A stretch of 64,000 nucleotides of DNA from an uncultured Patescibacteria group bacterium (GCA_905478415.1 CAJQIG010000001.1:150098-214097), one strand, 5' to 3'. Positions 1,353 through 64,000 are shown, counted from the first letter of the stretch. Translations and numbers: made by a program. Notes: generated from the letters alone by a model not told the origin.

Positions 1353-1636
1353 GAGTTGGTTTTCTAATGGCTTGCTTTTGGTTATGGCTAGTATAGCAGG
1401 AGATTTGGGATTGTAAAAAACAAAGAGAAGGTTAAAAAAATATCCCATAGTATTGATTTTAAAATGTATCTCTGGTATAATTACTCGATTACAAACTTTT
1501 GAAAATCAAAAAAAGTTTCGTGATCTATTCTTTAACAGTTTACCTATTTATAAACAGTAAATTCTCTTTCATAGAATGGTGTCTTATATTCAACATTGGG
1601 TTGAATATTTAACCACCATTCTTGGAGGATTATTTC

Positions 1637-3088
1637 ATGAAGAATGCACCATTATTTGTAGGGTTAGGACTGATAGTGTTGATCCTGGGGTGGATCTTTG
1701 CCCCTTCGGCCATTGTCCATTTCATCCTTTTTGATATATTGTGGCTCGGCTTGCCTTACCTTTTGCCAGTCTTGGTTGTAATATTGCTAGTTTTACTAGC
1801 AGGCATGAAGAGTGAGGGTTTAATCATAGCCGTCTTCGTTGCTGGAGTGATTGGACTTATTTGCTGGTGGATTTATTTGCCGGCTTTAAGTCAATATGAA
1901 TTGGTTAATTCAATCAAACCAGTTCCCATCGAAGATATCCCAGCAAGTTCGAATGTCAGATTTATGCCAATGCCAGTTGCTCAACAGTTGGCATCCAGTA
2001 AATACCAGGACCCTCGTCATCATATTGGTGATATGGATCCTATCGAACTTGAAAGCGGAGACATTGGCTGGGTTGGAAGTCGTATACCAACGGGAATAGT
2101 TAACTACTACTCGGGTAATGCCCAAGGTACGATAACTGTTGATCCTTTTGGTCGTGTGACTACCCAAGATCAAGTCTTTGCTTGCGGTGAAGGAATGGCT
2201 ATTACTGATAATATCCGATGGAAATTGTGGCGTGAACATTATGGCGCCGTCCTGGATGAATATTACTATATTACAATTGACGATGAAATTGTTTTGATGG
2301 CTCCTTATATCACTTGGCATCTTGAAGGGATTGTCTTTGTGCCCCAGTGGGGTGGCGTATTTGTTGTTGACGGCGATTGTCACATTGAAGATTTATCTCC
2401 TCGTGAGGCTTTGGCCGATAGCCGCCTGATTGGGCATCGAATTGTTCCGGAAAGTTATGCTAAACGTGTTGCAGATGCATGGCAATACCGCAATGGTATT
2501 GCGAATGCTTGGTTTTACCATGTTGATCAGACTGAAGTACCAACGATTGATGGTGAGGATAACCAAATGCCGTACCTGATTCCAACGGAATTGGGTGAGC
2601 AATGGTTTATCGCCATGGAACCGTATGGGCCTGCATTTAGCATCTTTAAAATGATGTTTGTTGATGCTCATGACGGAACAATCCGCTTGTACGAATATTC
2701 TGAAGATGCGGCGATCATTTCACCTAATAAGGCGCTTGGTTTTATCCAGGCAGCCAATCCCACATACAACTGGGATAAAATTCGCGTAATTGAACCGCGG
2801 CCGCTGATTGTTGATAACGTTCTCTATTGGATGATGAGCCAAACAAGCTCTGACTTTAGTGGTGTAGAACGAACAATTCTTGTTCGATCGTCCGATGAGA
2901 AAGTTTTAGTGGTTGAATCTTATGAAGAGCTAGTGGTATTTCTTAGTGGCAACACAGCAACCGCTAGTCAGCTAGATGAAGAATCAACTGCTGTTAACAG
3001 TGAGGTTCCCAGTGACCTTACAACTTTGACTACGCAAGAGCTCTATGATTTGATCATGGACGTTGCTCGTGAGTTGGAAAGTCGTTAA
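1637..3088 (+). CDS. hypothetical protein: N-terminal 3-TM anchor plus ~380 aa extracytoplasmic domain
   Basis: ORF track 1622..3088. Position 1622 is TTG. The ATG at 1637 is preceded by GGAGG (1624-1628) at 8 nt spacing. Hydrophobic N-terminus (LFVGLGLIVLILGWIF..., LPVLVVILLVLLAG..., IAVFVAGVIGLICWWIY). Remainder is hydrophilic with no recognisable motif. GC noticeably higher than the window average. Confidence 0.6.
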   Translation: MKNAPLFVGLGLIVLILGWIFAPSAIVHFILFDILWLGLPYLLPVLVVILLVLLAGMKSEGLIIAVFVAGVIGLICWWIYLPALSQYELVNSIKPVPIEDIPASSNVRFMPMPVAQQLASSKYQDPRHHIGDMDPIELESGDIGWVGSRIPTGIVNYYSGNAQGTITVDPFGRVTTQDQVFACGEGMAITDNIRWKLWREHYGAVLDEYYYITIDDEIVLMAPYITWHLEGIVFVPQWGGVFVVDGDCHIEDLSPREALADSRLIGHRIVPESYAKRVADAWQYRNGIANAWFYHVDQTEVPTIDGEDNQMPYLIPTELGEQWFIAMEPYGPAFSIFKMMFVDAHDGTIRLYEYSEDAAIISPNKALGFIQAANPTYNWDKIRVIEPRPLIVDNVLYWMMSQTSSDFSGVERTILVRSSDEKVLVVESYEELVVFLSGNTATASQLDEESTAVNSEVPSDLTTLTTQELYDLIMDVARELESR

Positions 3089-3114
3089 TTTTTTGTAAAT
3101 AGGTACTATTGTAA

Positions 3115-3149
3115 GAGGCTCCTTCATTTCGAAGGGGCCTCATTTTTTT
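3115..3149 (+). terminator. Rho-independent terminator after 1637..3088, also abutting the convergent GT2 stop
   Basis: GAGGCTCCTTC-ATTTC-GAAGGGGCCTC gives an 11-bp stem (one G.U) and 5-nt loop, followed by ATTTTTTT. Confidence 0.65.
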
Positions 3150-3924
3150 ACTTCATCACCCGATACGCCCACACAATCAAGGTAGCATGTATCTTATGCA
3201 CAAACCGAATAAAGGGAGATTTCACGTATTTCAGAACCAGTTCATGCTCTTCGGCAAACTGCTTTTCATAGAGGGCTCCCCCTTTAGACTGGCCATGAAT
3301 TCTAAAGAGTGAAAAATGTGAATCAGTTACATGCAATGGAAATTGCTCCATAGCTCGCATCCAGTAGTCAAAGTCCATACAGAAGTGGAGGTCTTCGTTA
3401 AACATACCGACTTTATTTAGCAGCTCACGACGCCAAAAGGTACTGGGTTGGATAATATAGTTGGCAATAGAAAGTCTGGTGCGGGTAGGATCTTTGCGAA
3501 GCCATTTTTTATACTCGGCTACAAAACTTTGAATTTTGTTGCCTTTTTCATCAATAATAAAGTAGTCACCGGTTAGCCACATAGCATCGGAGTGATTGCT
3601 GAAGTACTCTGCCACGGTGTTAAGTGTATTGGGAAGAAAAACATCGTCACTATTAATAAAACAAAGGATGTCGCCAGTGGCTTTTTTAAGACCTTGGTTA
3701 ATTGCATCGGTTTGGCCTTTATCTTTCTTTGAGACCCAAGTAAATTGTGTACCGTACGATTTGAGAATCTTGACGGTATCATCGGTCGATCCCCCATCCA
3801 TGACGATATACTCAAGGTTTGGGTAGTTTTGATTGAGCACACTCTCAATTGTTTCTGTAATGAAGTGACCTTGGTTATAGCTGGGGGTGATAACGGTTAT
3901 TTTAGGAAGTTGCTTTTGTTTCAT
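3148..3924 (-). CDS. glycosyltransferase family 2 (GT-A fold)
   Basis: N-terminus KITVITPSYNQGHFITETIESVLNQNYPNLEYIVMDGGSTDDT plus the DxD-region INSDDVF are the classic GT2 signature. Confidence 0.8.
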   Translation of the reverse strand: MKQKQLPKITVITPSYNQGHFITETIESVLNQNYPNLEYIVMDGGSTDDTVKILKSYGTQFTWVSKKDKGQTDAINQGLKKATGDILCFINSDDVFLPNTLNTVAEYFSNHSDAMWLTGDYFIIDEKGNKIQSFVAEYKKWLRKDPTRTRLSIANYIIQPSTFWRRELLNKVGMFNEDLHFCMDFDYWMRAMEQFPLHVTDSHFSLFRIHGQSKGGALYEKQFAEEHELVLKYVKSPFIRFVHKIHATLIVWAYRVMK

Positions 3925-3949
3925 AGCCTTATTTTACCGTATAAACACA

Positions 3950-3980
3950 AAAAAAACGGCACCTAAAAAATAGATGCCGT
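3950..3980 (-). terminator. putative intrinsic terminator downstream of lipoprotein gene (minus strand)
   Basis: ACGGCA ... TGCCGT 6-bp stem with a large loop. On the minus strand it is followed by a T8 run (complement of aaaaaaaa 3948-3955). The large loop lowers confidence. Confidence 0.35.
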
Positions 3981-4001
3981 ATATAAAAACAATTAATACA
4001 A

Positions 4002-5006
4002 TTAACTACCGGTGAGTCCATGGACAACATGCCAGATTAACTCAAACATATCTGACTTCTTGTTGAGGACCATGTCTGCACCATTCTCTTCAAAGAGCTC
4101 ACGCACAGTCGATTCTTCATCTGACCATAACCGAGTGATTCGGTCAAGATTTTCTGATGTGTAGGCAAAAATCAACAATGGTGGTGGTAGTAAGGCTGCA
4201 ATTTCAGCCACGCAGGTGTGGCCAGGAGCTTGTCCCTCACTATGTTGGTCAACAACATACACATGGGCCAATTTAACAATCCCTGCACGCCAAGCGGCAC
4301 AGCTGGGATAGGCACCAACGGTGATAATACCTTGTTGAGCCAAGTTAGCTACAATGAGTGATGCCCACATGGCGTTATCTTCAATAACAACCGCAAGCGA
4401 ACCCGTTGGGGCCTGAATATCAATATCACCCGCCTCAACGGTAGGTGCCATTGCTACAATACCAACTTGGTCTTCAACCATTCCAGCTGGCAAGATTAGG
4501 TCAGTTCCATACCCTGCTTCCCATTCTTGGAAGCCATCAAAGGTGGTACCAGACCAGACAGCCTGATTTTGGAGACTGACTGCGGCTTGGCCACTAAAAA
4601 TTGCAACGATGCTTCCTTTGAGCATCATAACCAAAAATTCATCCCCTGGAATGGGATCGGCTACTGTTATTGCAAACAGTGGAACAAGAATATAGTTCTC
4701 GTTACCATTGAGCGATGCAGTAAATGCATCTCGATTTGTCCAACGGTACAGTGGGTCAACTACATCCCAATCAGATCCAGAGCATGATTCCCAGACACCA
4801 GAAACAACGCGAAGACTGCCTGGAGGGCAATATCCGGTATTAATGGCTTCATCTTGGGTGGTTGCTCCCCAGAAAACTGGGCTTTCGGCTGTATCTTCAA
4901 TTTTTGCAGGAGTGGAACTTTGGACAGCTGTACCAGGTGTTCCACATGCGGTTAGGGCGAATACTATGGCCATTACTATAATCAGAGTTTTTTGTGCTTT
5001 GCTCAT
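4002..5006 (-). CDS. hypothetical lipoprotein
   Basis: ORF track 4002..5018. The second ATG gives MSKAQKTLIIVMAIVFALTACGT, a lipoprotein signal peptide with lipobox L-T-A-C. The mature part has no recognisable motif. GC-rich relative to the window. Confidence 0.6.
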   Translation of the reverse strand: MSKAQKTLIIVMAIVFALTACGTPGTAVQSSTPAKIEDTAESPVFWGATTQDEAINTGYCPPGSLRVVSGVWESCSGSDWDVVDPLYRWTNRDAFTASLNGNENYILVPLFAITVADPIPGDEFLVMMLKGSIVAIFSGQAAVSLQNQAVWSGTTFDGFQEWEAGYGTDLILPAGMVEDQVGIVAMAPTVEAGDIDIQAPTGSLAVVIEDNAMWASLIVANLAQQGIITVGAYPSCAAWRAGIVKLAHVYVVDQHSEGQAPGHTCVAEIAALLPPPLLIFAYTSENLDRITRLWSDEESTVRELFEENGADMVLNKKSDMFELIWHVVHGLTGS

Positions 5007-5130
5007 TTTTGCCTCCACGAGCTAGATAGAAAATAAAAATTGTTTGTTAAAAAACGATAGTTACTTCTCAAAGAGAAATAACTATATCCTATATTATATC
5101 ATAAGAGGAGTTTAATAGTGTGTAAACGTA

Positions 5131-5159
5131 AAAATGGCAGCCTCTTGGACTGCCATTTT
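5131..5159 (-). terminator. intrinsic terminator hairpin downstream of 5177..5860 (minus strand)
   Basis: AAAATGGCAG-CCTCTTGGA-CTGCCATTTT is a perfect 10-bp stem with a U-rich 3' arm on the minus strand. Confidence 0.5.
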
Positions 5160-5176
5160 CTTTCTACATTCTTTAC

Positions 5177-5860
5177 TTACTTGCGCAGAAATCCATACCC
5201 CGTATCATCGTTTCCTGGGAATGGGTTGGGATCGTTGCTTTGGGCTCGGATAATGCCTTCCTGTTTTAGCCACCACAAGGGGCGATACTGGATTTGAGTA
5301 ACTTGTGTGGGATGGTAGGTAGCCCGTGTAAAAGGCACCTCTACCACATGGGAGACTTTGGTGCCGTCCCCTGTCATACCGACTGGAGATTTACGCAGTG
5401 TATCACCACCGCCCAAAGAAAACACCTCTTTGGTGAATGCTTCGTTCATGGGCATAACTACTTCTTTTTCTCGGAAGAAAGCTAAGCCAATGACGCCAGC
5501 ATTATCTGTGTTGCCTGAAGTCCAGGCCGCAACAGAGTTGGAAGGATAGGTAACCTTAAATGGAGAAATGGTCCCATTATCAAGGCGATATCCTTCAATA
5601 ATTAGCTGACCATCTAAGATATAACCACGGTCATTAAGAAAATCTGCAGGGCGATTGCGGTGAACAGAACGGCCGTCTACAGACATGTAGACTTCCATTC
5701 TATCAAATGGTCCAGCAGTCGAAACACGAACCTTGATATGATCATTAACCTCTGCTTGAACAAACGGCATGTTATCGCCTTGGCGATAGAAAATTTCTGT
5801 TGGCCGATCATTACGGAGGATAATAATGTTTGCCAAACTTCCAGGAATCATGTTGTTCAT
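5177..5860 (-). CDS. hypothetical soluble protein, unknown function
   Basis: 227-aa ORF with no TM segments or recognisable motifs. GC-rich (~48-50%) compared with neighbours. Followed by a hairpin terminator. Confidence 0.55.
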   Translation of the reverse strand: MNNMIPGSLANIIILRNDRPTEIFYRQGDNMPFVQAEVNDHIKVRVSTAGPFDRMEVYMSVDGRSVHRNRPADFLNDRGYILDGQLIIEGYRLDNGTISPFKVTYPSNSVAAWTSGNTDNAGVIGLAFFREKEVVMPMNEAFTKEVFSLGGGDTLRKSPVGMTGDGTKVSHVVEVPFTRATYHPTQVTQIQYRPLWWLKQEGIIRAQSNDPNPFPGNDDTGYGFLRK

Positions 5861-37306: not shown

Positions 37307-38878
37307 TTACCTTAGGCTTTTCAGCTCTACCATTAGTTTATCACGACCAACCAGTACTAGGGCGAGAATGTAGGAAGAACCAGTGATAACTCCGCCTAGT
37401 AAGAGATGACCAAATCCCAATCCCCAATAGTCTCTTCCTAAGAAGCCCACAAAAGCCATAACTATAGCTGCCACTGCCTGACGCCAAACTGACTCTATAA
37501 AGTTGATCGGTACTATCTTTCGAACATAATACACCGGTAAAGCCGAAGTGAAGGAAATTGCTAATGCAGCCAGAGCTACTCCATTATACCCATAGAAAAC
37601 TATAAGAACTGGAGTCAAAACCCAAGTCAAAATTGTCCAGAAAATCATCAATTTTAAAGTTGTGTTTATCTGTCCAACAGCGTTGAGCGTATTGGTGAGT
37701 GGCGTTGAAACTGCACTCCAACCTATACTGAGAGTAAAGAAAATAAGACTGAATGCCGCAGGTTGCCACTTTTGATACTCTGGGATAATTGTCAAAGCTG
37801 GAATTATAAAGGTCACCATACCGATTAAAATTGGAAAAATGGCAGTGGTAATAAAGAAAAGAGATTTTTCAATTGCTTTTCTCAAGGCAACTTTATGGCC
37901 TTGTAAACGAGAGAATGCCGGGAACGTAACCGACATAACATTTTGAACAGTTAAGCTATAAGGATACATGGACCATTGCTTAGCCCAAGTGATATAACCA
38001 AATTCCTTTGATGGCAAAAATGCTGCCAAGAAAAAGTAAAAGAGCTGGTCTTTAATTCGTGCCAAGAAATCATTAATCTGGAATTTAGCACCGTAACCAA
38101 ACAATCCTTTTAGGGCTGGCACGTGAATCATAATACCAAATGACCAAGGTTGTAGCACTGACATACTGATAGCCCCAACCACTGAACGAAAGATAATAGC
38201 GTAGGCATATGAAATCAATCCATAGCCACGAATAACCATAAAAATAAGTGTGCCTTGAAACACAATTTGTTCTAGGATCTGTGGCAAGACAAGTTTTGAA
38301 AAATCTAACTTTCTTTCCAAAATAACAGATGGGATTGTCTTTAAGGTTGCAAGCGGAAATGAGAGACCCATTGCCAGGAGGATCCAAATACCGGCATTAC
38401 CAGCCTTCATTTGAAATGCTGCAGTAGTTGCTACAAGAATAGTTATACCAAAAATGAGCCAACTCAAAAGTTGTTGTACAGTAAATGCAGTCCGGTACTC
38501 ACGTTTGGTCGGAGTAGTCTTCTTTTGAATCAAAGCTGCTGCTAACCCAATATCTGAAAAGAAAGTTAAGAGCCCAACAACTTGAATCACTAGTCCATAA
38601 ATACCATAATCTTCAGGGGAAAGATAAAAACCTAGTAAAGAGGTTGCAACTAATCCAATGACCTGCAAAAGAACTGTTCTTAAAAAGTATGAAGCGGCCC
38701 CATTGACAGAACGTTTTTTAATATCTTGGATAGCAACTTCCTGTGCATGAGTAATTTTTTCCTCTTGTTCCGGAAACGAGCCAACTGATTTAAGACTCGG
38801 CTTTTGTGGAAATATCGGAGTACCAAGCTTTGAAACAAGATCTCTATATTTAGCTTTTTGAAAAAGGCGAAACAACAT
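37307..38878 (-). CDS. wzx: Wzx-type lipid-linked oligosaccharide flippase (MOP/PST family) with ~55 aa hydrophilic N-terminal extension
   Basis: About 12-14 TM helices. N-terminal region ASYFLRTVLLQVIGLVATSLLGFYLSPEDYGIYGLVIQVVGLLTFFSDIGLAAALIQKK matches the conserved Wzx/PST N-terminal core. Start codon shares one base with the upstream stop. Confidence 0.75.
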   Translation of the reverse strand: MLFRLFQKAKYRDLVSKLGTPIFPQKPSLKSVGSFPEQEEKITHAQEVAIQDIKKRSVNGAASYFLRTVLLQVIGLVATSLLGFYLSPEDYGIYGLVIQVVGLLTFFSDIGLAAALIQKKTTPTKREYRTAFTVQQLLSWLIFGITILVATTAAFQMKAGNAGIWILLAMGLSFPLATLKTIPSVILERKLDFSKLVLPQILEQIVFQGTLIFMVIRGYGLISYAYAIIFRSVVGAISMSVLQPWSFGIMIHVPALKGLFGYGAKFQINDFLARIKDQLFYFFLAAFLPSKEFGYITWAKQWSMYPYSLTVQNVMSVTFPAFSRLQGHKVALRKAIEKSLFFITTAIFPILIGMVTFIIPALTIIPEYQKWQPAAFSLIFFTLSIGWSAVSTPLTNTLNAVGQINTTLKLMIFWTILTWVLTPVLIVFYGYNGVALAALAISFTSALPVYYVRKIVPINFIESVWRQAVAAIVMAFVGFLGRDYWGLGFGHLLLGGVITGSSYILALVLVGRDKLMVELKSLR

Positions 38879-40620
38879 TAAGATCTTTCTTTCTTGATTT
38901 TTTGTTCTTGGCTTATATACAAGTAAAGAACGACTACTAAAAGCAAACTCACAGCCGAAATCGTATCACTAATCTTTCGAACCTGGGTAGACTGAAATAC
39001 TACTTTTACTATTTTTCCTCCTGCAGGAAGAGCTGCTTCAAGTAACCCTGTTGGAGATATTCTTTTTTCAACCTGCACTCCATCTACAAAAACCTGCCAT
39101 CCTGGAAAGTCGGCAATCGAGAAGAGTACTTGTCTGTCAGTTTCGCTAGCTACAAATTGATATATTTTCTTGTGACCAGCACTCTCAATAACCTCATATT
39201 CGCACTCATCCTGTAAGCACTCCAGTTGTTGTTGGGGCGGCTGGATACCATCCAAAATCATTGCACTGGGTATGTAATCAGGTAGCGTCTTACTCATTTC
39301 ACTTGCTACCCGAGCTGGATTATCATAGTAATACTTTTCAGGTGCATCCAAGTAGGATTTTGGCTTAAAAATACTTGCAGTACTGAGTAACAGAAAGAAC
39401 ATCCCCACAATGTAGAAACGGGCCTTCCTTCCTTTCAAGAAGAAAAGAGGTACTCCAACTGAGCTTGCCAAAAATACTGAAGTAATGGACAAGTATCTCC
39501 AAGGAAACTGAATGTAAGACATAAAAGGAAGAGCTCTCCAAACTAAGATTGAACGCTCAAGCGAAAGAAACAATCCTAAACCAATAAGTAAAAATAGAAT
39601 TCCTAGTATGGCGATCTTATTAAATAGCGCGATTTTTCTTTTCTTATACAAAGATGTTGAAACAGCTGAGTTTCGAATTACTTGAACCACTAACAGTAGA
39701 GATCCAACCACACTCACGAGTTGACCAGTCCCTAAGTAAAATGAAATTGGATCGTTCGGCCCCCATTCTGATCCACCATATCCCCAGAAAGCGGTAAAAA
39801 ATTGACGAATATACAAAAAATGCAGTGAAAAATCAAAATATCCAGAAAGAATAGTGGCATCTACTTGTGTAAAATCTTTTTCAAGTAATGCTGGGAAAAT
39901 ATAAAACGCTGCCAAACCAACTGCAAGCAAAACTGATGAAATTACTCCACTAAGTTCTTTACCTAGTTCTTGCAATCTTATCTTCTGTAAATAATAGCCC
40001 TGGCCAAGTTGAAATAAATAAAACAAGACAAAAAATGGAGCTGAAATTAAAGCCGTTAGGTTATGACTCAGCAATAAGATAACCAAACCAAAAGTAATAC
40101 CTCCCCAACCTTTCCAAAAATGAGTTCTGATTTTGATCAGACCCCAAAGAACAATTGGTATCGCCATCATTCCCCAAGATTCACTCAAAGCGCCTCTGAC
40201 AAAAAGATTTAATGCTCTGTATGGTGCCAACGTTAAGGCAGCTGCTACTAACACACCTGCTGCTTTACTCTTAAATAGTTCTTTGGCAAAAAAGTAGGCC
40301 GCAAGTAAAGTACCGACGCTACTGAGTAAAAACAATGCTTTGACTGCAGTGATAAGTGGAAATCCCACTTGATAAAGAAGTGACCCAATAAAGTACGGTA
40401 ACGGCGCATAAAACTCAAAAAGAGGCATACCATATCCATAACCAAAATTTTGACTCCATCTAACCGGGAATTGCCCTTCTTGGAGTGCACTGGTCATCTC
40501 GGTAATTCTAACGCCATGAATGAAATCATGAACATCAAACATACCAGGTTTGAGTAGTGCCCAACTAGAAGCTACTATAACTAATAGAAGACTTAGGCTT
40601 ACCAATAGCTTTCTTTTCAT
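38878..40620 (-). CDS. uncharacterised GT-C-like polytopic membrane protein, GQFPVRW family (paralog 3 of 3)
   Basis: N-terminal loop VHDFIHGVRITEMTSALQEGQFPVRWSQNFGYGYGMPLFEFYAPLPYFIGSL. C-terminal ADFPGWQVFVDGVQVEKR...LPAGGKIVKVVF plus a terminal TM. Confidence 0.6.
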   Translation of the reverse strand: MKRKLLVSLSLLLVIVASSWALLKPGMFDVHDFIHGVRITEMTSALQEGQFPVRWSQNFGYGYGMPLFEFYAPLPYFIGSLLYQVGFPLITAVKALFLLSSVGTLLAAYFFAKELFKSKAAGVLVAAALTLAPYRALNLFVRGALSESWGMMAIPIVLWGLIKIRTHFWKGWGGITFGLVILLLSHNLTALISAPFFVLFYLFQLGQGYYLQKIRLQELGKELSGVISSVLLAVGLAAFYIFPALLEKDFTQVDATILSGYFDFSLHFLYIRQFFTAFWGYGGSEWGPNDPISFYLGTGQLVSVVGSLLLVVQVIRNSAVSTSLYKKRKIALFNKIAILGILFLLIGLGLFLSLERSILVWRALPFMSYIQFPWRYLSITSVFLASSVGVPLFFLKGRKARFYIVGMFFLLLSTASIFKPKSYLDAPEKYYYDNPARVASEMSKTLPDYIPSAMILDGIQPPQQQLECLQDECEYEVIESAGHKKIYQFVASETDRQVLFSIADFPGWQVFVDGVQVEKRISPTGLLEAALPAGGKIVKVVFQSTQVRKISDTISAVSLLLVVVLYLYISQEQKIKKERS

Positions 40621-53333: not shown

Positions 53334-53356
53334 ACAGCGGGTGTTGTACCCGCTGT
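53334..53356. terminator. bidirectional hairpin terminator between convergent aminopeptidase and fbaB/small-ORF units
   Basis: ACAGCGGGT-GTTGT-ACCCGCTGT is a perfect 9-bp stem. Flanked by A7 upstream (a T-run on the minus strand) and T-rich sequence downstream. Confidence 0.6.
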
Positions 53357-56766: not shown

Positions 56767-58431
56767 ATGGAAGTTTTTGTTGAGCTCAGCTTAATTATCA
56801 CCATCACCACTTTAGTTTCATTTATCATGAAACAGCTCAAACAACCATTAGTGGTTGGGTATATTTTAAGCGGTATCCTTGTCGGACCGCTCTTTCTCAA
56901 TTTACTTCACTCCACTGACGTGATTGAGGTCTTCTCAAAGTTAGGCATTTCAATTCTTTTGTTTATCGTTGGACTCCATATGAATCCTAAAATTGTGAAG
57001 GAAGTGGGTTCTGTTTCGTTAATCACTGGAGTAGGTCAAGTGCTTTTCACCTCATTCTTTGGTTTTATTCTTGCAGTTCTACTTGGTCTTGATACGGTGG
57101 CAGCCATGTACGTTGCAATTGCCCTTACCTTTAGTAGTACTATCATTATTCTTAAACTTCTTTCTGATAAAGGTGACGTGCATAGTCTCTATGGGCGGAT
57201 ATCTGTCGGATTTTTATTAGTGCAGGATATCATTGCAACCTTAATTTTAATTATTGTGTCTTCGGTGGCAGGAGCAGGTGACATGCCGCTTTCATTCACC
57301 CTTTTTTCTGTTCTGATGAAAGGCGCTTTTATTTTGATTTCACTCGAATTAATAAAAAAATTAGTGCTTCCAAAGTTGCTCGAAGCAGCTTCGGATAACT
57401 CAGAGTTATTATTCATCTTTTCTCTGACTTGGGGACTTGGGTGTGCTGCCCTATTCTACGTCCTTGGACTCTCTGTAGAAATTGGTGCCTTAATTAGCGG
57501 AGTGGTGTTATCTTCTTCTATCTATGCTGAAGAAATCGGCTCACGCTTGCGACCGCTCAGAGACTTCTTTATTGTGCTCTTCTTTGTACTCTTAGGGGCT
57601 TCAATGACCCTTAATTCTGGATTTACATTAGTGCTACCAGTGCTTGTTTTATCACTGTTTGTCCTAATTGGAAATCCAATTATTGTCGTCATCATCATGA
57701 ACTTACTTGGATACCATAAAAAGACTGGGTTCCAAGCGGGACTTACCGTTGCCCAAATTAGTGAGTTTAGCCTTATTTTGGCTACATTAGGCTTTAATGT
57801 GGGACATATAAATCAGGAGATCTTAACCATGATTACTTTGGTAGGACTAATTACTATTTCTGGTTCAACCTACTTAATTTTGTATTCAGACAAAATCTAT
57901 ACTCTGATTGAAAAATACCTCTCATTTTTAGAGCTGAGAAAAAATAATCAAAGTAGTACCGGTAAATATGCAAAGGTCGATACCTTTATTTTTGGATTTA
58001 ATCGAGTTGGCACCACATTTTTAGATACCTTTAAAGAACTTGGCTATAACACTGGCATAGTTGATTTTGACCCGAATACTCTCGATAAATTGCCCAAACG
58101 AAGTAACTATTACTATGGTGATGTGGCTGATGTAGAATTTTTAAGTGAACTTCCTCTTGGACAAGTAAAGTTTGCTATTTCCTCAATTAAGAACCGTGAA
58201 GCAAATCTGACAGTATTAAAACACTTGGCGGAACGACAACCAAAAGCCATTAGTATTATCTTTGCTGAGGATGTTGTAGAAGCTCAAGCACTGTACGAAG
58301 CCGGTGCCAATCAAGTCGTCCTGCCTCACTTTGTGGGTGCCGAAGTCACTGCTAAACTCATTAAACGAGTAGGATACTCACCAGCTAGCTTCGACAGAAA
58401 AAAACAAGAGCACATCAAGAATTGGAGTTAA
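56767..58431 (+). CDS. monovalent cation:proton antiporter (CPA2/Kef-type) with C-terminal RCK/TrkA-N domain
   Basis: About 12 TM helices with a CPA2-like N-terminus (VGYILSGILVGP). C-terminal FIFGFNRVGTTFLDTFKELGYNTGIVDFDPNTLDKL is the Rossmann RCK domain. Confidence 0.8.
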   Translation: MEVFVELSLIITITTLVSFIMKQLKQPLVVGYILSGILVGPLFLNLLHSTDVIEVFSKLGISILLFIVGLHMNPKIVKEVGSVSLITGVGQVLFTSFFGFILAVLLGLDTVAAMYVAIALTFSSTIIILKLLSDKGDVHSLYGRISVGFLLVQDIIATLILIIVSSVAGAGDMPLSFTLFSVLMKGAFILISLELIKKLVLPKLLEAASDNSELLFIFSLTWGLGCAALFYVLGLSVEIGALISGVVLSSSIYAEEIGSRLRPLRDFFIVLFFVLLGASMTLNSGFTLVLPVLVLSLFVLIGNPIIVVIIMNLLGYHKKTGFQAGLTVAQISEFSLILATLGFNVGHINQEILTMITLVGLITISGSTYLILYSDKIYTLIEKYLSFLELRKNNQSSTGKYAKVDTFIFGFNRVGTTFLDTFKELGYNTGIVDFDPNTLDKLPKRSNYYYGDVADVEFLSELPLGQVKFAISSIKNREANLTVLKHLAERQPKAISIIFAEDVVEAQALYEAGANQVVLPHFVGAEVTAKLIKRVGYSPASFDRKKQEHIKNWS

Positions 58432-58432
58432 C

Positions 58433-58460
58433 TTTACGCATTCATGTGGTAAACTATAAT
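58433..58460 (+). promoter_or_regulatory. sigma70-like promoter for tRNA-Gln
   Basis: TTTACG (-35), 16-nt spacer, TATAAT (-10), ending ~15 nt upstream of the tRNA 5' end. Confidence 0.45.
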
Positions 58461-58474
58461 CGATTATTGCCCAA

Positions 58475-58545
58475 TCCCGAATAGTGAAGTGGCATCACAA
58501 CAGGTTCTGGTCCTGTTATCCTAGGTTCGAATCCTAGTTCGGGAT
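58475..58545 (+). tRNA. tRNA-Gln (anticodon CUG)
   Basis: Manual fold. Acceptor TCCCGAA/TTCGGGA (U1-A72 as in bacterial tRNA-Gln), U8, D-stem GTGA/TCAC with GG in the D-loop. Anticodon stem ACAGG/CCTGT, loop TTCTGGT gives CTG. T-arm CTAGG-TTCGAAT-CCTAG. CCA is not encoded. 71 nt with a 4-nt variable loop. Coordinates +/-1. Confidence 0.8.
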
Positions 58546-58634
58546 CCTTTTTCTTAAAAAAGTATACTACCTGATAGATTTTATTTTAACTTTCCTTTTG
58601 AATACCAAAGCTTTCATCTTTATACTAGGTTCAT

Positions 58635-59684
58635 ATGCCAGAGCATCAACGTCCATTCATAGATACTATTGTGAACAAGATACATTCAGCTCCTGATACT
58701 GCAGAAAATAACATCCAATTTTTGCTAAGAGTCGAAGCGTATGAGTATGGATCTACGTTACAAACAAAGCATCAAATAGCTGAAGCACTTCAATCAATTG
58801 CAATCCCAGAGAGCATGCGCGAAGAAGTGGAATTATATCTTCTCTATTTGAAAAGATACGAGCGCACCACACCAGTCTTCGATGAAACATGTATTACCTA
58901 TGACAACGGATACTTCATTGGGGGCTTCCCACTTTTTGATGCAACCAAAAACTACATTTTTCAGCCAAACTATACAGGTGTGGTCATTGCTCAATCGGGG
59001 GAACAATACCAAGTCACCTGTTATCCAAACTCTGTAGAAATTAAAAACTATGGCAGAGTGGAACAAATGTCAGGAGAACCCGGCTATTTCAAGTTAAAAA
59101 AAGAAGAACAATATGCACAAGCTTTTGTTGAAAAGGAGTCTCCAGACAAATCAGAGAGAGATCCCAACATATACTTTGGTCGTTTACTTCAATATTTAAC
59201 TGATACCTATCCATTTGCAATGGGACCTATTACTCACTTTAGAGCGGATTGGAGAAAAGGAACAAACTATGATGTATATCAGGAATATACTGCACTGTTG
59301 CAAAAACAAATAAAACCTTTTGTCAACTCACCTGTGGCAGCACAGCCATTGTATGAGCAATTGGCACCATATATTGTAGACACACCACTTAACGGGGTAG
59401 ATCTAGCAACCTATCTAGAAAAACTAAAAAAAATAGAGTTAGAAAGACGACAACAAAAAATAGCAATAGGATGGGACTATGCTCTTGATCAACAAGCAAT
59501 TAATCAAGAAGCTATTTTAGAATTATGTGCTCAAATTGCTGCATGGAAAACAGCCACCGGAACGGCGTTGCACACGAAATTAGGTTTTTCCAGCGTACAT
59601 ACGTTTCCTTTATTGTTATTTTCTAGAGAGATAAAAACTGTTCTAGAGAGAGAAAAAAGAATACAGAGTTTACCGGTTATTTAA
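58635..59684 (+). CDS. hypothetical protein
   Basis: 349-aa ORF, soluble, no motif recognised. Confidence 0.5.
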   Translation: MPEHQRPFIDTIVNKIHSAPDTAENNIQFLLRVEAYEYGSTLQTKHQIAEALQSIAIPESMREEVELYLLYLKRYERTTPVFDETCITYDNGYFIGGFPLFDATKNYIFQPNYTGVVIAQSGEQYQVTCYPNSVEIKNYGRVEQMSGEPGYFKLKKEEQYAQAFVEKESPDKSERDPNIYFGRLLQYLTDTYPFAMGPITHFRADWRKGTNYDVYQEYTALLQKQIKPFVNSPVAAQPLYEQLAPYIVDTPLNGVDLATYLEKLKKIELERRQQKIAIGWDYALDQQAINQEAILELCAQIAAWKTATGTALHTKLGFSSVHTFPLLLFSREIKTVLEREKRIQSLPVI

Positions 59685-59791
59685 CAGTTAAAATAACTAT
59701 GATTATTCAAAATGAAGATATTTGAAGTTCCAACATAATACAACAGTACCCTACTACAATAACTAGCTACCATGTAAAGCATCCCATAGTA

Positions 59792-59820
59792 TTGAGATTA
59801 TTTAATCTTTATGTTAAAAT
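59792..59820 (+). promoter_or_regulatory. sigma70-like promoter upstream of 59863..60180
   Basis: TTGAGA, 17 nt, TAAAAT. Confidence 0.35.
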
Positions 59821-59862
59821 AGCAGACATATTTTATCAACACATCAGCAATCAACCGGTTGC

Positions 59863-60180
59863 TTGAACATTAATAATAACAAGGAGGATGAAACTTTGAA
59901 AACAGTGACTAGTACTGTTGTTTCAAAATCAAAGTATAAGGGAATGCAACCGATGAATGGAAAAATGATGATGTTTGATTTTCCATTCAAGCGGCCAATC
60001 TGCTATCAGCTACATTTAGCAGAGGGATGCACTATTGATGTGAGTAAAACTAAATACTACTCCACAGCAATAGGTGACACCATTACTGCTGAATGTATGG
60101 AGTTATCAGATGTCCTGATTATTCTAAGTATTATTGTTGTTCTTATTTGCCTCTTTTTTGCATTATTTGTTCTTATTTAA
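59863..60180 (+). CDS. small C-terminally membrane-anchored protein
   Basis: ORF track (ATG 59863). A strong AAGGAGG at 59881-59887 sits 7 nt upstream of an in-frame TTG (~59896), so the real start may be there (94 aa). C-terminal VLIILSIIVVLICLFFALFVLI is a TM tail. Confidence 0.5.
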   Translation: MNINNNKEDETLKTVTSTVVSKSKYKGMQPMNGKMMMFDFPFKRPICYQLHLAEGCTIDVSKTKYYSTAIGDTITAECMELSDVLIILSIIVVLICLFFALFVLI

Positions 60181-60199
60181 AAGGTTGATAATTATTAAT

Positions 60200-60233
60200 C
60201 CTCTTCGGCATTGCCTGAAGAGGATTTTTTTTA
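60200..60233 (+). terminator. Rho-independent terminator
   Basis: CCTCTTCGGCA-TTGCC-TGAAGAGG hairpin followed by ATTTTTTTTTATT. Confidence 0.65.
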
Positions 60234-60278
60234 TTATTTGATACTTTTTAAATAAATAGAACCTATATTTATTTTTTA

Positions 60279-60287
60279 TGATATAAT
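60279..60287 (+). promoter_or_regulatory. extended -10 promoter element (TGaTATAAT) upstream of 60362..60769
   Basis: TGATATAAT matches the TGnTATAAT consensus ~75 nt upstream of the ATG. The gene has a GGAGG SD at 8 nt spacing. Confidence 0.45.
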
Positions 60288-60361
60288 TTAAAACGATTAC
60301 CATAGTAATCATCGCAATTTAAAATATCTTTGTTCAGCTTACGCCAAAGGAGGCATTCTAC

Positions 60362-60769
60362 ATGGTTTCACTCAATACTTTACAATCTGAACCCTATAAA
60401 GGGTATGTGAAAAAACTCTCTATTGAAGCAGGTTGGTCAGTAGAGGTCTATGATGTGCAAGCAGAACAGATTTGCTTGTTAGAAGAGTATGATGGAAAAT
60501 ACTTAGTCAGCGGAAGCAGTTTTCTAATTGCTCTCAACTATTACGGTTGTACACAATTAGAGTGGGAAGCAAAAAATGCACAGGGTGCTTCATGGTATGA
60601 TGCAAAGCCAATTTCTGGTACTGAATTAACAATCGGATTCTCAAAAATCTGGTTATTTTTTCAAGAGGACGAAGCAGAAGTAACCTTAAAAGTCCGGTTA
60701 CATGATGCAAGTAGCGAAGATAGTTTAGGAGAAGAACATGTTATTCACTTACAGCTAGTGAAAATATAA
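60362..60769 (+). CDS. hypothetical small protein
   Basis: 135-aa ORF with AAAGGAGG at 8 nt. No motifs. Confidence 0.55.
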   Translation: MVSLNTLQSEPYKGYVKKLSIEAGWSVEVYDVQAEQICLLEEYDGKYLVSGSSFLIALNYYGCTQLEWEAKNAQGASWYDAKPISGTELTIGFSKIWLFFQEDEAEVTLKVRLHDASSEDSLGEEHVIHLQLVKI

Positions 60770-60791
60770 TATGTATCTTTTCATATGCAAT

Positions 60792-60819
60792 AAAAAGCTG
60801 TCATTTTGGCAGCTTTTTT
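60792..60819. terminator. bidirectional intrinsic terminator between convergent small genes
   Basis: AAAAGCTGTC-ATTTT-GGCAGCTTTT, with the A-run and T-run forming the stem ends, so it works on either strand. Confidence 0.6.
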
Positions 60820-60879
60820 GTTATATAACAAAACGCCTCATTATTGAAAAAAATTATACATCTGAATCTTTTTACCACC

Positions 60880-61317
60880 TTAACTCAACTGATCCCTTAC
60901 TCTATTTGCATTGCTTGCTAATCCATCTCTAAACTGAGTAGCAACTTCTTGACCCAAATCCTTGTGCATTAATACAATGGTTGCCACATTTTTATTTGCA
61001 TCATCTTGTTTTGGTAACGACCTCAGCTGCATGCCCATTATTTCTGCCTCTACTTTGTCATTAAGCTGTATCTTCACTTTAGGCAATCTATCACTTTCTT
61101 TCAGTCGATGCATTGCCAATTCTAGTGCCACATGATCTATCTGTTGATGGGAAAAGGAAACAAATAGAGGAAGATAATCTGCGTTTTCTTTAGGAAAGAT
61201 TCTATCAAGTTGAACCTTTGTTTCTGCTCCAACTTGGTCAATTGTGATAAGGCCACAATCCTTTGATCTCTTTACCACCTGTGTTTCATTGTCATTTTTA
61301 GCTTCACTGCCATTCAT
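60880..61317 (-). CDS. hypothetical small protein
   Basis: 145-aa ORF, hydrophilic, no motifs. Confidence 0.5.
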   Translation of the reverse strand: MNGSEAKNDNETQVVKRSKDCGLITIDQVGAETKVQLDRIFPKENADYLPLFVSFSHQQIDHVALELAMHRLKESDRLPKVKIQLNDKVEAEIMGMQLRSLPKQDDANKNVATIVLMHKDLGQEVATQFRDGLASNANRVRDQLS

Positions 61318-61377
61318 ATTTTTCTTTCATTCTAATGTTAGTGATACTTTTAAGTATACTACAAACATACCATTATA

Positions 61378-61406
61378 TTTACTTTATCCTATAAGTTTGC
61401 TATAAT
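61378..61406 (+). promoter_or_regulatory. sigma70-like promoter with extended -10 upstream of 61449..61847
   Basis: TTTACT (-35), 17-nt spacer, TGcTATAAT (extended -10). Confidence 0.45.
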
Positions 61407-61448
61407 GCCGAATCTTTAACATCAGTCACCTTTTCAATGGAGGAAACA

Positions 61449-61847
61449 ATGAGTAAGGTACGTTTGTCTTTAGGACCAAAACTTGAATATCCAAGTGTCC
61501 CAGCAGTTTTTATAGAACAAAAAGGAAAGCTTTGGCCACCCTTTTCATATAAGAAAGTTGAGCACGCTACAAAATGTAGTGCAAGTATGCAACCAGTTTT
61601 CCTAGTTGAATCAGATTTTGCTCGTCAGTTTGTTGGGTTTATGGAACCTCTTCAAAAACCCAGAAGTTTGTTACTACTCCCCTGTGATCCGAATGAGGAA
61701 ATAACGCTCAGTGGCCTACACAAAGGCCATATGATCTATGACGTGAAAATCAGGTTTGTCTCATTTTCTACAGTCAAATTAACGAGCTTTTTCCCGTTTC
61801 CAGATTCGGGAATTGCTACGTATTCTGTTGATTTTGAAGCACAGTAA
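61449..61847 (+). CDS. hypothetical small protein
   Basis: ORF track 61437..61847. The ATG at 61449 (MSKVRL) is preceded by GGAGG at ~6 nt. No motifs. Confidence 0.55.
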   Translation: MSKVRLSLGPKLEYPSVPAVFIEQKGKLWPPFSYKKVEHATKCSASMQPVFLVESDFARQFVGFMEPLQKPRSLLLLPCDPNEEITLSGLHKGHMIYDVKIRFVSFSTVKLTSFFPFPDSGIATYSVDFEAQ

Positions 61848-61866
61848 TAGTGACTTGTTAAATTTT

Positions 61867-61896
61867 AACCCGGGCAAACACCCGGGTTATTTTTTT
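61867..61896 (+). terminator. Rho-independent terminator
   Basis: AACCCGGG-CAAACA-CCCGGGTT then ATTTTTTT. Confidence 0.7.
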
Positions 61897-61934
61897 ATCG
61901 ATCACAACTCACATTCATTTGCTATACTTCTTTT

Positions 61935-62735
61935 ATGAAGATTCTTTCTTACAACATTATGAGTGGCGGTTTTAATGGCTACGACCATGAAACAAAGCAA
62001 CCGCAGCGACTAGAGCTGATCAAAAAGAGTGTTAAAGCTATCAATGCGGATGTAATCTCATTAGTTGACACCTTCAGGTGGGATCAATTATATACGAACA
62101 AACAACTCTGTGAGATGTTTAAGTATCGATATGCCCACTGCATAAACCTAGGCGACAGCAGACTTAAAAAACTTGGACATAACAATGGCATAACAGTGCT
62201 CTCCAATGTTGAAGGAACCACTTTTAAAACTCTGAATCTTGGAACTAGAAATGCCATCCAGACATCAATACCACAAGGTGGTGCCCCAATAGATCTATTT
62301 AGCATCTATCTAGATGACCTGAGTGAAGAAGTCCGATTGCAACAAATACATCACCTAGTAAAGAATCTAGAACCTCAAAAAGCATCAATTATTATGGGAG
62401 ATCTAAATACACTTAGCCCAAAAGACAGTGTCATTACAAAGAGTGTTGTAGATATTCTTTTACAGGAAAATCCAAAATACGAATTTATTAGAAATCAACT
62501 ATACGACATGATGGAAACCAAAGTTATACAGCAACTCTTTGACCTGGGTTTTAAGGATGCAGCAAACCCTCCAATCAACACAGCGCCCACAAAACTGACA
62601 CACATCTCAGATAAAGCTTTTTTACGACTGGATCATTGTCTCTATAAGAATGTACCTATTAAAACATTTCAAGTTCTGACTGATACTTTATATGACCAGG
62701 TATCTGATCACTACCCCATCGTAGTGGAGTTATAA
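61935..62735 (+). CDS. endonuclease/exonuclease/phosphatase (EEP) family protein
   Basis: N-terminal ILSYNIMSGG and C-terminal SDHYPIVVEL are the hallmark first and last catalytic motifs of EEP-fold Mg-dependent nucleases/phosphatases. Confidence 0.7.
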   Translation: MKILSYNIMSGGFNGYDHETKQPQRLELIKKSVKAINADVISLVDTFRWDQLYTNKQLCEMFKYRYAHCINLGDSRLKKLGHNNGITVLSNVEGTTFKTLNLGTRNAIQTSIPQGGAPIDLFSIYLDDLSEEVRLQQIHHLVKNLEPQKASIIMGDLNTLSPKDSVITKSVVDILLQENPKYEFIRNQLYDMMETKVIQQLFDLGFKDAANPPINTAPTKLTHISDKAFLRLDHCLYKNVPIKTFQVLTDTLYDQVSDHYPIVVEL

Positions 62736-62798: not shown

Positions 62799-64000
62799 GT
62801 GAAAACAATCGCTCAGCTCAACAAACCTGTCATTCTTTTTTTTATTTTATACTTTCTTTTGGGAACACTTATTTTTAAAAATTATGGAATATCTTGGGAT
62901 GAACCCTATCAGCGACAAATCGGCTACGTCAGCTTAGAATATATTAGAGGAGACACATCTCTACTCAGCTTCACTGACCGCTACTACGGAGTTATCTTTG
63001 AACTTCCACTCGTCATAATAGAGAGAGTTGCAAATATTGAAGATACTCGAATAATCTATCTTTTTAGACACTACGCTACTTTTTTGCTTTTTTATGCAGG
63101 TGTTATTGTGTTTTACTTACTCAATACAAAGCTCTTTAAATCTTGGAAACTAGGTCTTGTTGCTTGCAGTTTTTTACTTCTCAACCCCCGAATATTTGCT
63201 GATAGTTTTTATAACTCAAAAGATATACCCCTTTTGGTTTTCTATATTTTTTCAACCTATACTACCTACCAATTTGTTACAGAAAAAAAGAAGACTAACT
63301 TTTTTTTACACAGCCTAGCCTCTGCCCTCGTCATAAATACTCGGGTTGTAGGATTAATTATTCCTGCCGTCACTACCCTATTTCTGCTAGTTTCTGAACC
63401 TAAAAAAAACATTAAAAAACTAGTTTACTATCTAACTACTACGTCAATTTTTACTTACCTCTTCTGGCCAGTACTCTGGACAAATCCACTCCGTATTTTC
63501 GAAGCCATCGCAACTATGGCTAATTTTTCATATCAAAAGAATCTACCAACTCTCTATCTTGGCGAGTTCGTCTCAACCTTTTCTTTGCCATGGCATTATT
63601 TACCCGTTTGGATAGGTAGCACTCTTCCCATCAGTTTTTCAATTCTTTTTCTTTTAGGACTTCTTAAAGCTTTTTTTGAATATAAGCAAGGAACATCAAA
63701 AAAGTTGCAAGAGAATTCTCTGCTGTTGGTGCTTATGTGCGTTCCAATTCTCAGTGCCATTTTCTTAGGATCTACTCTCTATGACGGCTGGAGACATTTC
63801 TACTTTATCTACCCATTAATGGTCGTTTTTATGATCAAAGGTGTACAGATCTTACCAAAAAAACTACTTTTAATTGTAGGAATTGAACTACTACTGACTA
63901 TCAGCTTCATGATCAAAAATCACCCTCACCAACAGGTCTACTTTACTAGCATCTTCAGAAATAATTTTGAAACTGCGAAACAACTCTTTGAGTTAGATTA
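62799..64000 (+). CDS. PMT/ArnT-like membrane glycosyltransferase (GT39/GT83-type), 5' part; runs off window end
   Basis: Open frame from GTG ~62799 to the window end (not in the track because it is unterminated). TM1 then KNYGISWDEPYQRQIGYVSLEYIRGD, plus multiple TM helices. Same DE-loop architecture as the five paralogs upstream. Confidence 0.55.
   Translation, partial: MKTIAQLNKPVILFFILYFLLGTLIFKNYGISWDEPYQRQIGYVSLEYIRGDTSLLSFTDRYYGVIFELPLVIIERVANIEDTRIIYLFRHYATFLLFYAGVIVFYLLNTKLFKSWKLGLVACSFLLLNPRIFADSFYNSKDIPLLVFYIFSTYTTYQFVTEKKKTNFFLHSLASALVINTRVVGLIIPAVTTLFLLVSEPKKNIKKLVYYLTTTSIFTYLFWPVLWTNPLRIFEAIATMANFSYQKNLPTLYLGEFVSTFSLPWHYLPVWIGSTLPISFSILFLLGLLKAFFEYKQGTSKKLQENSLLLVLMCVPILSAIFLGSTLYDGWRHFYFIYPLMVVFMIKGVQILPKKLLLIVGIELLLTISFMIKNHPHQQVYFTSIFRNNFETAKQLFELD

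Follow-up and report, generated by a model that had tools for sequence, protein, structure and literature searches.

Genes between tRNA-Gln and CorA in an uncultured Microgenomates-type bacterium: a probable lineage-specific accessory slot

How did a set of genes without recognisable relatives come to lie directly behind a tRNA gene? This question is raised by a block at positions 58,433 to 62,735 of a 64,000-nt stretch of DNA, read on one strand and referred to below as the window, from an uncultured Patescibacteria group bacterium (GCA_905478415.1 CAJQIG010000001.1:150098-214097). A tRNA-Gln(CUG) gene is followed there by five genes, called A to E in their order of appearance, an EEP-family gene and a PMT-like gene, all of them at the places that an earlier note, made from the sequence alone, had given them; ARAGORN and Rfam agree on the tRNA, and Pfam on the last two genes. 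The note saw in the block a possible tRNA-adjacent islet of integrated or foreign DNA. The analysis presented here leads to a more modest answer: the interval from the 3' end of tRNA-Gln (58548) to the start of the gene encoding CorA (~64340, just past the window end) is probably a lineage-specific accessory slot, filled piecemeal, in the genome of a Microgenomates-type bacterium of the candidate phyla radiation (CPR, or Patescibacteria), while the block cannot be demonstrated to be an integrative element, a prophage remnant or a toxin–antitoxin (TA) or defence locus. The assignment of the source genome agrees with the Na+/H+ exchanger encoded 5' of the tRNA, whose best relatives are found in metagenome-assembled genomes (MAGs) of Patescibacteria (Roizmanbacteria, Shapirobacteria and Levyibacteriota).

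The evidence that carries this answer comes from synteny. The closest relative (L011, MAG GCA_964556485.1), which is the sole relative near enough for such a comparison, has a protein identity to the source genome of 63-74% (63% for the exchanger), and a JGI metagenome scan returned none closer, its best match being 54% identical. Common to both genomes, at 35-74% identity, is the order DeoC, phosphorylase, a 100-aa protein, exchanger and tRNA-Gln on one side of the junction, and CorA, response regulator, histidine kinase, PMT and MptA on the other, the latter being visible in a longer contig of the source organism (L001, a 21 kb locus) that extends past the window end. DNA homology ends at the 3' end of tRNA-Gln and picks up again at the CorA start codon. 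Between these two points lie 5.8 kb with seven genes in the source genome and 1.07 kb in L011, where a single 274-aa orphan is encoded. This orphan bears no relation to A, and no copy of it was found in the 69.7 kb of sequence on hand for the source genome. The gene order beside tRNA-Gln is thus not the same in all relatives, which favours an islet as far as one close relative can tell.

The junction is arranged differently again in other relatives. In one (L016), the PMT and response regulator genes are inverted between the exchanger and the tRNA, and in three more (L019, L022 and L023) the exchanger is followed immediately, and without an intervening tRNA, by an inverted CorA gene. Such adjacency of exchanger and CorA in distant relatives makes the short junction look older, and the tRNA-Gln/CorA junction appears, on these gene orders, as a recurrent rearrangement point. 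A second lineage-specific insertion seems to lie near the first: an Acyl_transf_3 gene is found between the response regulator and histidine kinase genes of the source organism (L001 17333-18400, ~3.3 kb past the window end), which are adjacent in L011. Within the source population there is no presence/absence variation, since identity is at least 99.96% among all 11 metagenome contigs with the block, which stem from several series of samples. Comparison among strains therefore amounted to looking at one clonal population, and it is the L011 locus that is without the block. These contigs (L001-L010 and L096, from SOLA22-1, KRUG19-2, ERZ1764xxx and ERR4352522) differ by 0-2 single-nucleotide polymorphisms over 3-15 kb, which makes the population a remarkably clonal and widely sampled one.

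Gene A bears the signature of a transfer. Among 5.8 billion clustered proteins it has one homologue, 70% identical, encoded in the same MAG as the L011 locus but on a different contig (L091), between GT4 and GNAT genes; none of the neighbours of this homologue is present in the 69.7 kb of the source genome, and no mobile-element markers were seen among them. A HMMER scan with a two-sequence profile of the family, run against 1.84 billion representatives, found 4 clusters; these added three members or fragments, 35-55% identical by tblastn, so that about five members are known (window 58635-59684, L091 10001-11050, L093 338-1636, L094 2309-3595 and L095 1-440). They have in common the strongly conserved motifs IGGxPLFD, EPGYFKxK, RDPxxYF, DTYPF, WRxGxN, AWKTxxG and LGF, two of them have an N-terminal extension of ~80 aa, and the further members stand in unrelated contexts on CPR-like contigs, one beside UDG and UvrD and one near DinB (DNA-repair genes). 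Nucleotide homology between the window's A and its 70% homologue covers the open reading frame (ORF) and ~23 nt upstream, including the -10 box, and goes no further. At conserved residues, identical codons make up 66% in A, against 44% expected, whereas they make up 41% in seven syntenic core genes, against 40% expected, which means that synonymous sites are saturated in the core genes. Likewise, four-fold sites are identical at 37/72 in A and at 144/490 in the core genes (p = 4e-4), and the NG86 estimates for the two A copies are 0.18 for non-synonymous (dN) and 0.81 for synonymous (dS) divergence, with a ratio of 0.22. Synonymous similarity thus persists in A but no longer in the core genes, so that the copies of A should be younger than the genomes that carry them, suggesting that A moved laterally between related CPR lineages, or into both.

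C, D and E are confined, as far as the searches reach, to this species. A 412-aa concatenation of the three, which drew 2173 candidates and so kept within the limit of 8000, found no homologue at E<=0.1 among the same 5.8 billion proteins, the 90% clusters of C, D and E hold members from this species only, and B to E, the EEP gene and the PMT_2 gene (the PMT-like gene introduced above) had no tblastn match in a set of 165 related loci (2.25 Mb).

If all seven genes had been present in the common ancestor and were deleted or replaced in the L011 lineage, nothing would have been inserted at all. The composition of the block, its codon usage and its promoter types are native, the population is clonal, with no contig lacking the block, and there is just one close relative to compare, all of which would suit such an ancestral region. 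GC content (0.34-0.39) and GC content at third codon positions (GC3; 0.29-0.35) of the block genes are close to the window values of 0.393 +/- 0.028 and 0.332 +/- 0.037, codon-usage z is <1.4 for B, C, E, the EEP gene and the PMT_2 gene, and tetranucleotide frequencies of block and window correlate with r = 0.95. However, the older look of the short junction in L019, L022 and L023, the lack of any homologue of C, D and E and the relative youth of the A copy found elsewhere in the relative's genome are at odds with differential loss, which we regard as distinctly unlikely.

Several points nevertheless weigh against an accessory slot filled by gene gain. L011, the sole close relative, is itself distant, with saturated synonymous sites, and with a single relative at such a distance differential loss keeps some probability. 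The transfer signal of A hinges on contig CAZKVV010000006.1 being rightly binned with CAZKVV010000002.1, and tetranucleotide composition, by which the binning of the L091 contig might be judged, does not tell the source genome from the relative's MAG. Codon usage deviates moderately in A (z = 3.3) and in D (z = 3.1), although one background gene reaches 3.7; this deviation could reflect foreign origin or expression-linked bias. The search of the large protein collection covered C, D, E and A, with B standing outside it. Finally, AlphaFold2 gave a pLDDT (its per-residue confidence) of 40.9 for A, from a 2-sequence alignment, and of 35.5 for D alone, models too poor for use. With these reservations, the accessory slot is the interpretation kept here.

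Could the slot be what is left of an integrative element or prophage that entered at tRNA-Gln, lost its integrase and attachment (att) sites and left B to E behind as 'moron'-like cargo cassettes? Phage morons are autonomous promoter–ORF–terminator cassettes described in lambdoid prophages, and B, C and E resemble them in being compact units between unrelated genes, each with its own strong promoter, Shine–Dalgarno (SD) sequence and factor-independent terminator; D has its own promoter too, and a terminator in common with C. As in tRNA-associated genomic islands, the left edge of the block coincides exactly with the tRNA 3' end, the corresponding site in the nearest (and single close) relative lacks the block, and its content consists of accessory or orphan genes, among them the ORFans C, D and E and the apparently mobile A. 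Unlike such islands, the block is only 5.8 kb long, shows neither mobility genes nor a compositional deviation, and looks as if put together from the kinds of genes that the host itself has. No integrase, recombinase, phage or plasmid gene was found by Pfam and PHROGs (which gave no match below E = 0.1) in the seven genes, nor any integrase or recombinase in the neighbours to 7 kb further downstream. Patterns of 17 and 24 nt from the tRNA end, with <=3 mismatches allowed, match the tRNA only in the 21 kb of L001, 11 kb of which lie downstream, and a general repeat search gave short AT-rich chance pairs only; the earlier note had likewise seen neither integrase nor direct repeat. In contrast to morons, B to E have no prophage around them and no homologues in the viral collections searched: IMG/VR scans with A, B, C, D, E and the EEP protein found no relatives, and searches of GenBank phages (by tblastn) and of PLSDB plasmids were negative. 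The one IMG/VR match of E (L092) was rejected, being a chance agreement over eight residues (PCDPNEEI) with a high-GC contig read in an overlapping frame. GC, GC3, tetranucleotides and coding scores all fall within the host range, and the promoters are of host type. A decayed element is in our view unlikely, and of the islet proposed by the earlier note what holds is its lineage-specific content from the tRNA 3' end onwards, with the transfer signature of A, and what finds no support is an island of the integrase type, with an att repeat or a deviating composition.

Much of the earlier argument for foreign DNA had come from expression signals. Three of the small genes do carry an extended -10 element, an SD sequence (AAGGAGG for B and C, GGAGG for E) and a hairpin terminator, as claimed, and the three terminators, each a hairpin with a T-run, have folding energies of -14 to -17.5 kcal/mol and z-scores of -2.6 to -5.7 against shuffled controls. 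B, C and E are hence predicted to be monocistronic units with an extended -10, a leader of 42-75 nt, a strong SD and an intrinsic terminator, while D would be transcribed from its own promoter, convergently to C, up to the bidirectional terminator that both use, a pairing that the note had also recognised. The claim that did not survive is that these signals are rare in the rest of the window. Exact copies of TGNTATAAT occur at 5 sites in the 64 kb, every one at a promoter position, and three of them are outside the block (1473, 5101 and 24310). Some 7 of 50 other window genes (~7) have an SD core of 5 nt or more before them, compared with 3 of 7 in the block, a weak enrichment by a rough hand estimate made without a tool (p ~0.09). 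Good intergenic terminators are found outside the block at 3115, 3980, 5085 and 53334-53356, with clear ones following the genes at 1622-3088, 4002-5018 and 5177-5860 and one lying between 53323 and 53606. Terminators are denser in the block (3 in 1.7 kb, versus ~4 in 58 kb elsewhere), which follows from its monocistronic genes, the bulk of the window being tightly packed operons.

The other genes of the slot point to a second way of starting translation. A positional scan of 57 genes picked out ten in which exactly 6-8 nt separate the start codon from the end of a -10-like hexamer, frequently one preceded by TG; other short distances were almost unoccupied. These ten genes, at 1448(-), 3924(-), 12548(-), 24295(-), 24334(+), 40620(-), 46465(+), 58635, 61935 and 62799, all lack an SD. 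They include A, whose -10 ends 8 nt before its ATG, so that its mRNA should be leaderless or nearly so, as well as the EEP and PMT_2 genes, with a spacing of 6 nt and a TG in both. This suggests that leaderless mRNAs are widespread in the source genome, beside a minority of SD-led genes with 5' leaders. The Pfam-less genes at 1.6-5.9 kb are stand-alone units like B to E. With two modes of initiation in one genome, strong SD sequences and terminators mark stand-alone genes with 5' leaders and not foreign DNA. The block appears to mix the two native expression modes of its genome, both of which are used elsewhere in the window, and does not seem to be written in a different signal dialect, contrary to the foreign origin that had been read from its signal usage. 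The three stand-alone genes within 1622-5860 have SD sequences, long leaders, strong terminators and a GC of 0.44-0.47, above the window mean, and the product of the middle one (4002-5018) has a lipoprotein-type signal with an LTAC lipobox.

One or more of the ORFans might be chance ORFs or non-coding transcripts caught between real promoters and terminators. Such doubts concern E most plausibly, for which a 3-periodic Markov model trained on the other window genes gave the weakest coding score (0.169, just under the 0.188 of the lowest background gene); without homologues the ORFans allow no conservation test, and no confident fold was obtained for D. Yet A to E as a group score 0.17-0.33 per codon against a background of 0.31 +/- 0.065, the annotated frame is the best of six for all five, chance ORFs of 94-145 codons are unlikely at 38% GC, B, C and E each have an ideally spaced SD, and independent gene callers predicted these genes in every metagenome assembly. 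Absence of coding function is accordingly very unlikely.

As for what the proteins do, the earlier note, which assigned no function to A to E, had suggested effectors, TA or immunity pairs, or other small secreted proteins. None of the five matches any family in Pfam, PHROGs, PADLOC or NCBIfam. Secretion finds no backing in their hydropathy, the maximum over 19 aa being <1.0 for A, C, D, E and the EEP protein. B is hydrophobic at its C-terminus only, where a soluble, Cys-containing N-terminal part is followed by a transmembrane anchor at residues ~73-94, the tail already noticed; its length is more likely 94 than 105 aa, since an AAGGAGG stands 8 nt before TTG 59896. A, C, D and E, with no hydrophobic segment, should be cytosolic. 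No signal peptide was seen in A to E or the EEP protein by hydropathy, a dedicated predictor not having been used, and secreted effectors are unlikely on these profiles. Small, species-specific proteins in a variable region are what one might expect of TA, immunity or anti-phage defence cassettes, and the convergent arrangement of C and D, which might form an interacting pair, could permit antisense or terminator-linked coupling. But the genes are separate transcription units and not co-transcribed bicistrons, each with its own promoter, C and D facing each other and B, C and E each ending in a terminator; moreover, the family searches gave no TA or defence match, and the genes have no paralogues or homologues, whereas TA and defence families are usually widespread. 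A role of this kind for any of B to E is extremely unlikely.

In the piecemeal scenario favoured here, the junction, a site of repeated rearrangement in this family, would have taken up genes by successive gains and not by one integrase-mediated insertion. A and its -10 box most likely came in through a lateral transfer among related CPR bacteria, and the ORFans may encode dispensable, fast-evolving, species-specific accessory proteins. A more adventurous view takes B to E, autonomous predicted mini-genes without relatives, either for the cargo of an unrecognised CPR mobile element that would make use of tRNA-Gln by means other than a conventional integrase or for newborn or fast-evolving species-specific factors of host or phage interaction at a recombination-prone tRNA junction; we think it rather improbable. 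The coordinates of all features are collected in Table 1.

Table 1. The tRNA-Gln gene, the genes of the slot and their predicted signals, in window positions
Feature	Position	Strand	Remarks
tRNA promoter-like site, TTTACG-16-TATAAT	58433..58460	+	-10 region kept in L011
tRNA-Gln(CUG), left edge of variable slot	58475..58547	+	ARAGORN; Rfam 60.2 bits
Probable lineage-specific segment	58548..64000	.	runs ~340 nt past window to CorA start (L001 15706), ~64340
Promoter of A, TTGAAT-17-TATACT	58598..58626	+	-10 kept in relative's A copy
Gene A, 349 aa, predicted cytosolic	58635..59684	+	tiny CPR-only family
Promoter of B, TTGAGA-17-TGtTAAAAT	59792..59820	+	leader ~70 nt
Extended -10 before B, TGTTAAAAT	59812-59820	+	
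SD of B, AAGGAGG	59881..59887	+	8 nt before TTG 59896
Gene B, 94 aa	59896..60180	+	ORF opens at 59863
Terminator after B	60197..60226	+	-17.5 kcal/mol, then T8
Extended -10 of C, TGATATAAT	60279..60287	+	leader ~70 nt
SD of C, AAGGAGG	60347..60353	+	8 nt before ATG 60362
Gene C, 135 aa, acidic, predicted cytosolic ORFan	60362..60769	+	
Bidirectional terminator common to convergent C and D	60792..60818	.	-14.3/-9.5 kcal/mol
Gene D, 145 aa, predicted cytosolic ORFan	60880..61317	-	TATAAT on minus strand, 61372-61377; no good SD
Promoter of E, TTTACT-17-TGcTATAAT, divergent from D	61378..61406	+	
Extended -10 before E, TGCTATAAT	61398-61406	+	
SD of E, GGAGG	61440-61444	+	5 nt before ATG 61449
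Gene E, 132 aa, ORFan	61449..61847	+	alternative ATG 61437
Terminator after E	61866..61889	+	-16.2 kcal/mol
Promoter of EEP gene, TGcTATACT	61901..61928	+	ends 6 nt before ATG; leaderless type
EEP-superfamily hydrolase, 266 aa	61935..62735	+	no signal peptide; absent at relative's locus
-10 of PMT_2 gene, TGcTATTAT		+	ends 6 nt before GTG
GT-C/PMT_2 membrane glycosyltransferase	62799..64000	+	starts GTG 62799; 494 aa in L001; runs off window; absent at relative's locus

Only the last two genes of the slot can be placed in a Pfam family. The EEP gene scores 39 bits with PF03372 (cut-off 24.5), the match covering residues 4-259 and the full profile (1-225 of 225). Its product shows the GDLN motif and a C-terminal SDH motif, and no specific subfamily reached its cut-off. 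The PMT_2 gene encodes a polytopic membrane protein that matches PF13231 with 31.8 bits, against a cut-off of 26.1. An EEP hydrolase and a GT-C glycosyltransferase might be in keeping with the envelope glycosylation that is a theme of the window. PDB sequence searches with A, C, D, E, the EEP protein and the A-family profile gave chance-level matches only, no paralogy was found among A to E, and a permissive Rfam search of the block put the tRNA alone above threshold.

Other regions of the window and other records deserve a mention of their own. A long run of proteins of 500-650 aa, encoded at 12603-32708 and 37307-40620, forms an envelope-glycosylation-like array; a Pfam scan of 10 of them recognised GT-C-type proteins in four (PMT_2, PMT, GT87 and ALG3) and DUF6056/PTPS_related in two, with no match for the other four, and more PMT and MptA genes just past the window end extend the theme. 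Full-length relatives of the Na+/H+ exchanger (56767-58431), a protein with a TrkA_N domain, occur at 43-51% identity in many MAGs of DPANN archaea (Woesearchaeota, Pacearchaeota and Nanohaloarchaea), and the protein is also found in CPR bacteria, a distribution that suggests cross-domain gene sharing among ultra-small organisms. Several of the related loci (L011, L015-L019, L022-L024 and others) belong to Patescibacteria by gene content and similarity and bear public titles such as 'uncultured Pseudomonadales' or 'Gammaproteobacteria'; they are probably mislabelled records.

Of the systems with which the block can be compared, the plasticity zones or hypervariable regions of reduced genomes, where small genomes of otherwise matching gene order carry different lineage-specific hypothetical genes, resemble it in their conserved syntenic flanks, in content that is unrelated between relatives, in the dominance of ORFans and in coinciding with a rearrangement breakpoint. 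It differs from them in being small and in its lack of variability within the population. The block is a fresh instance of a familiar type, an ordinary variable region. Its signals are a caution for island calls based on such signals in genomes that mix leaderless and SD-led initiation, and its ORFans make up a well-delimited set with clear expression signals that can be searched for in metatranscriptomes and metaproteomes. Its importance is limited, but it puts on record the tRNA-Gln/CorA junction of an uncultured CPR bacterium as a specific place of gene turnover.

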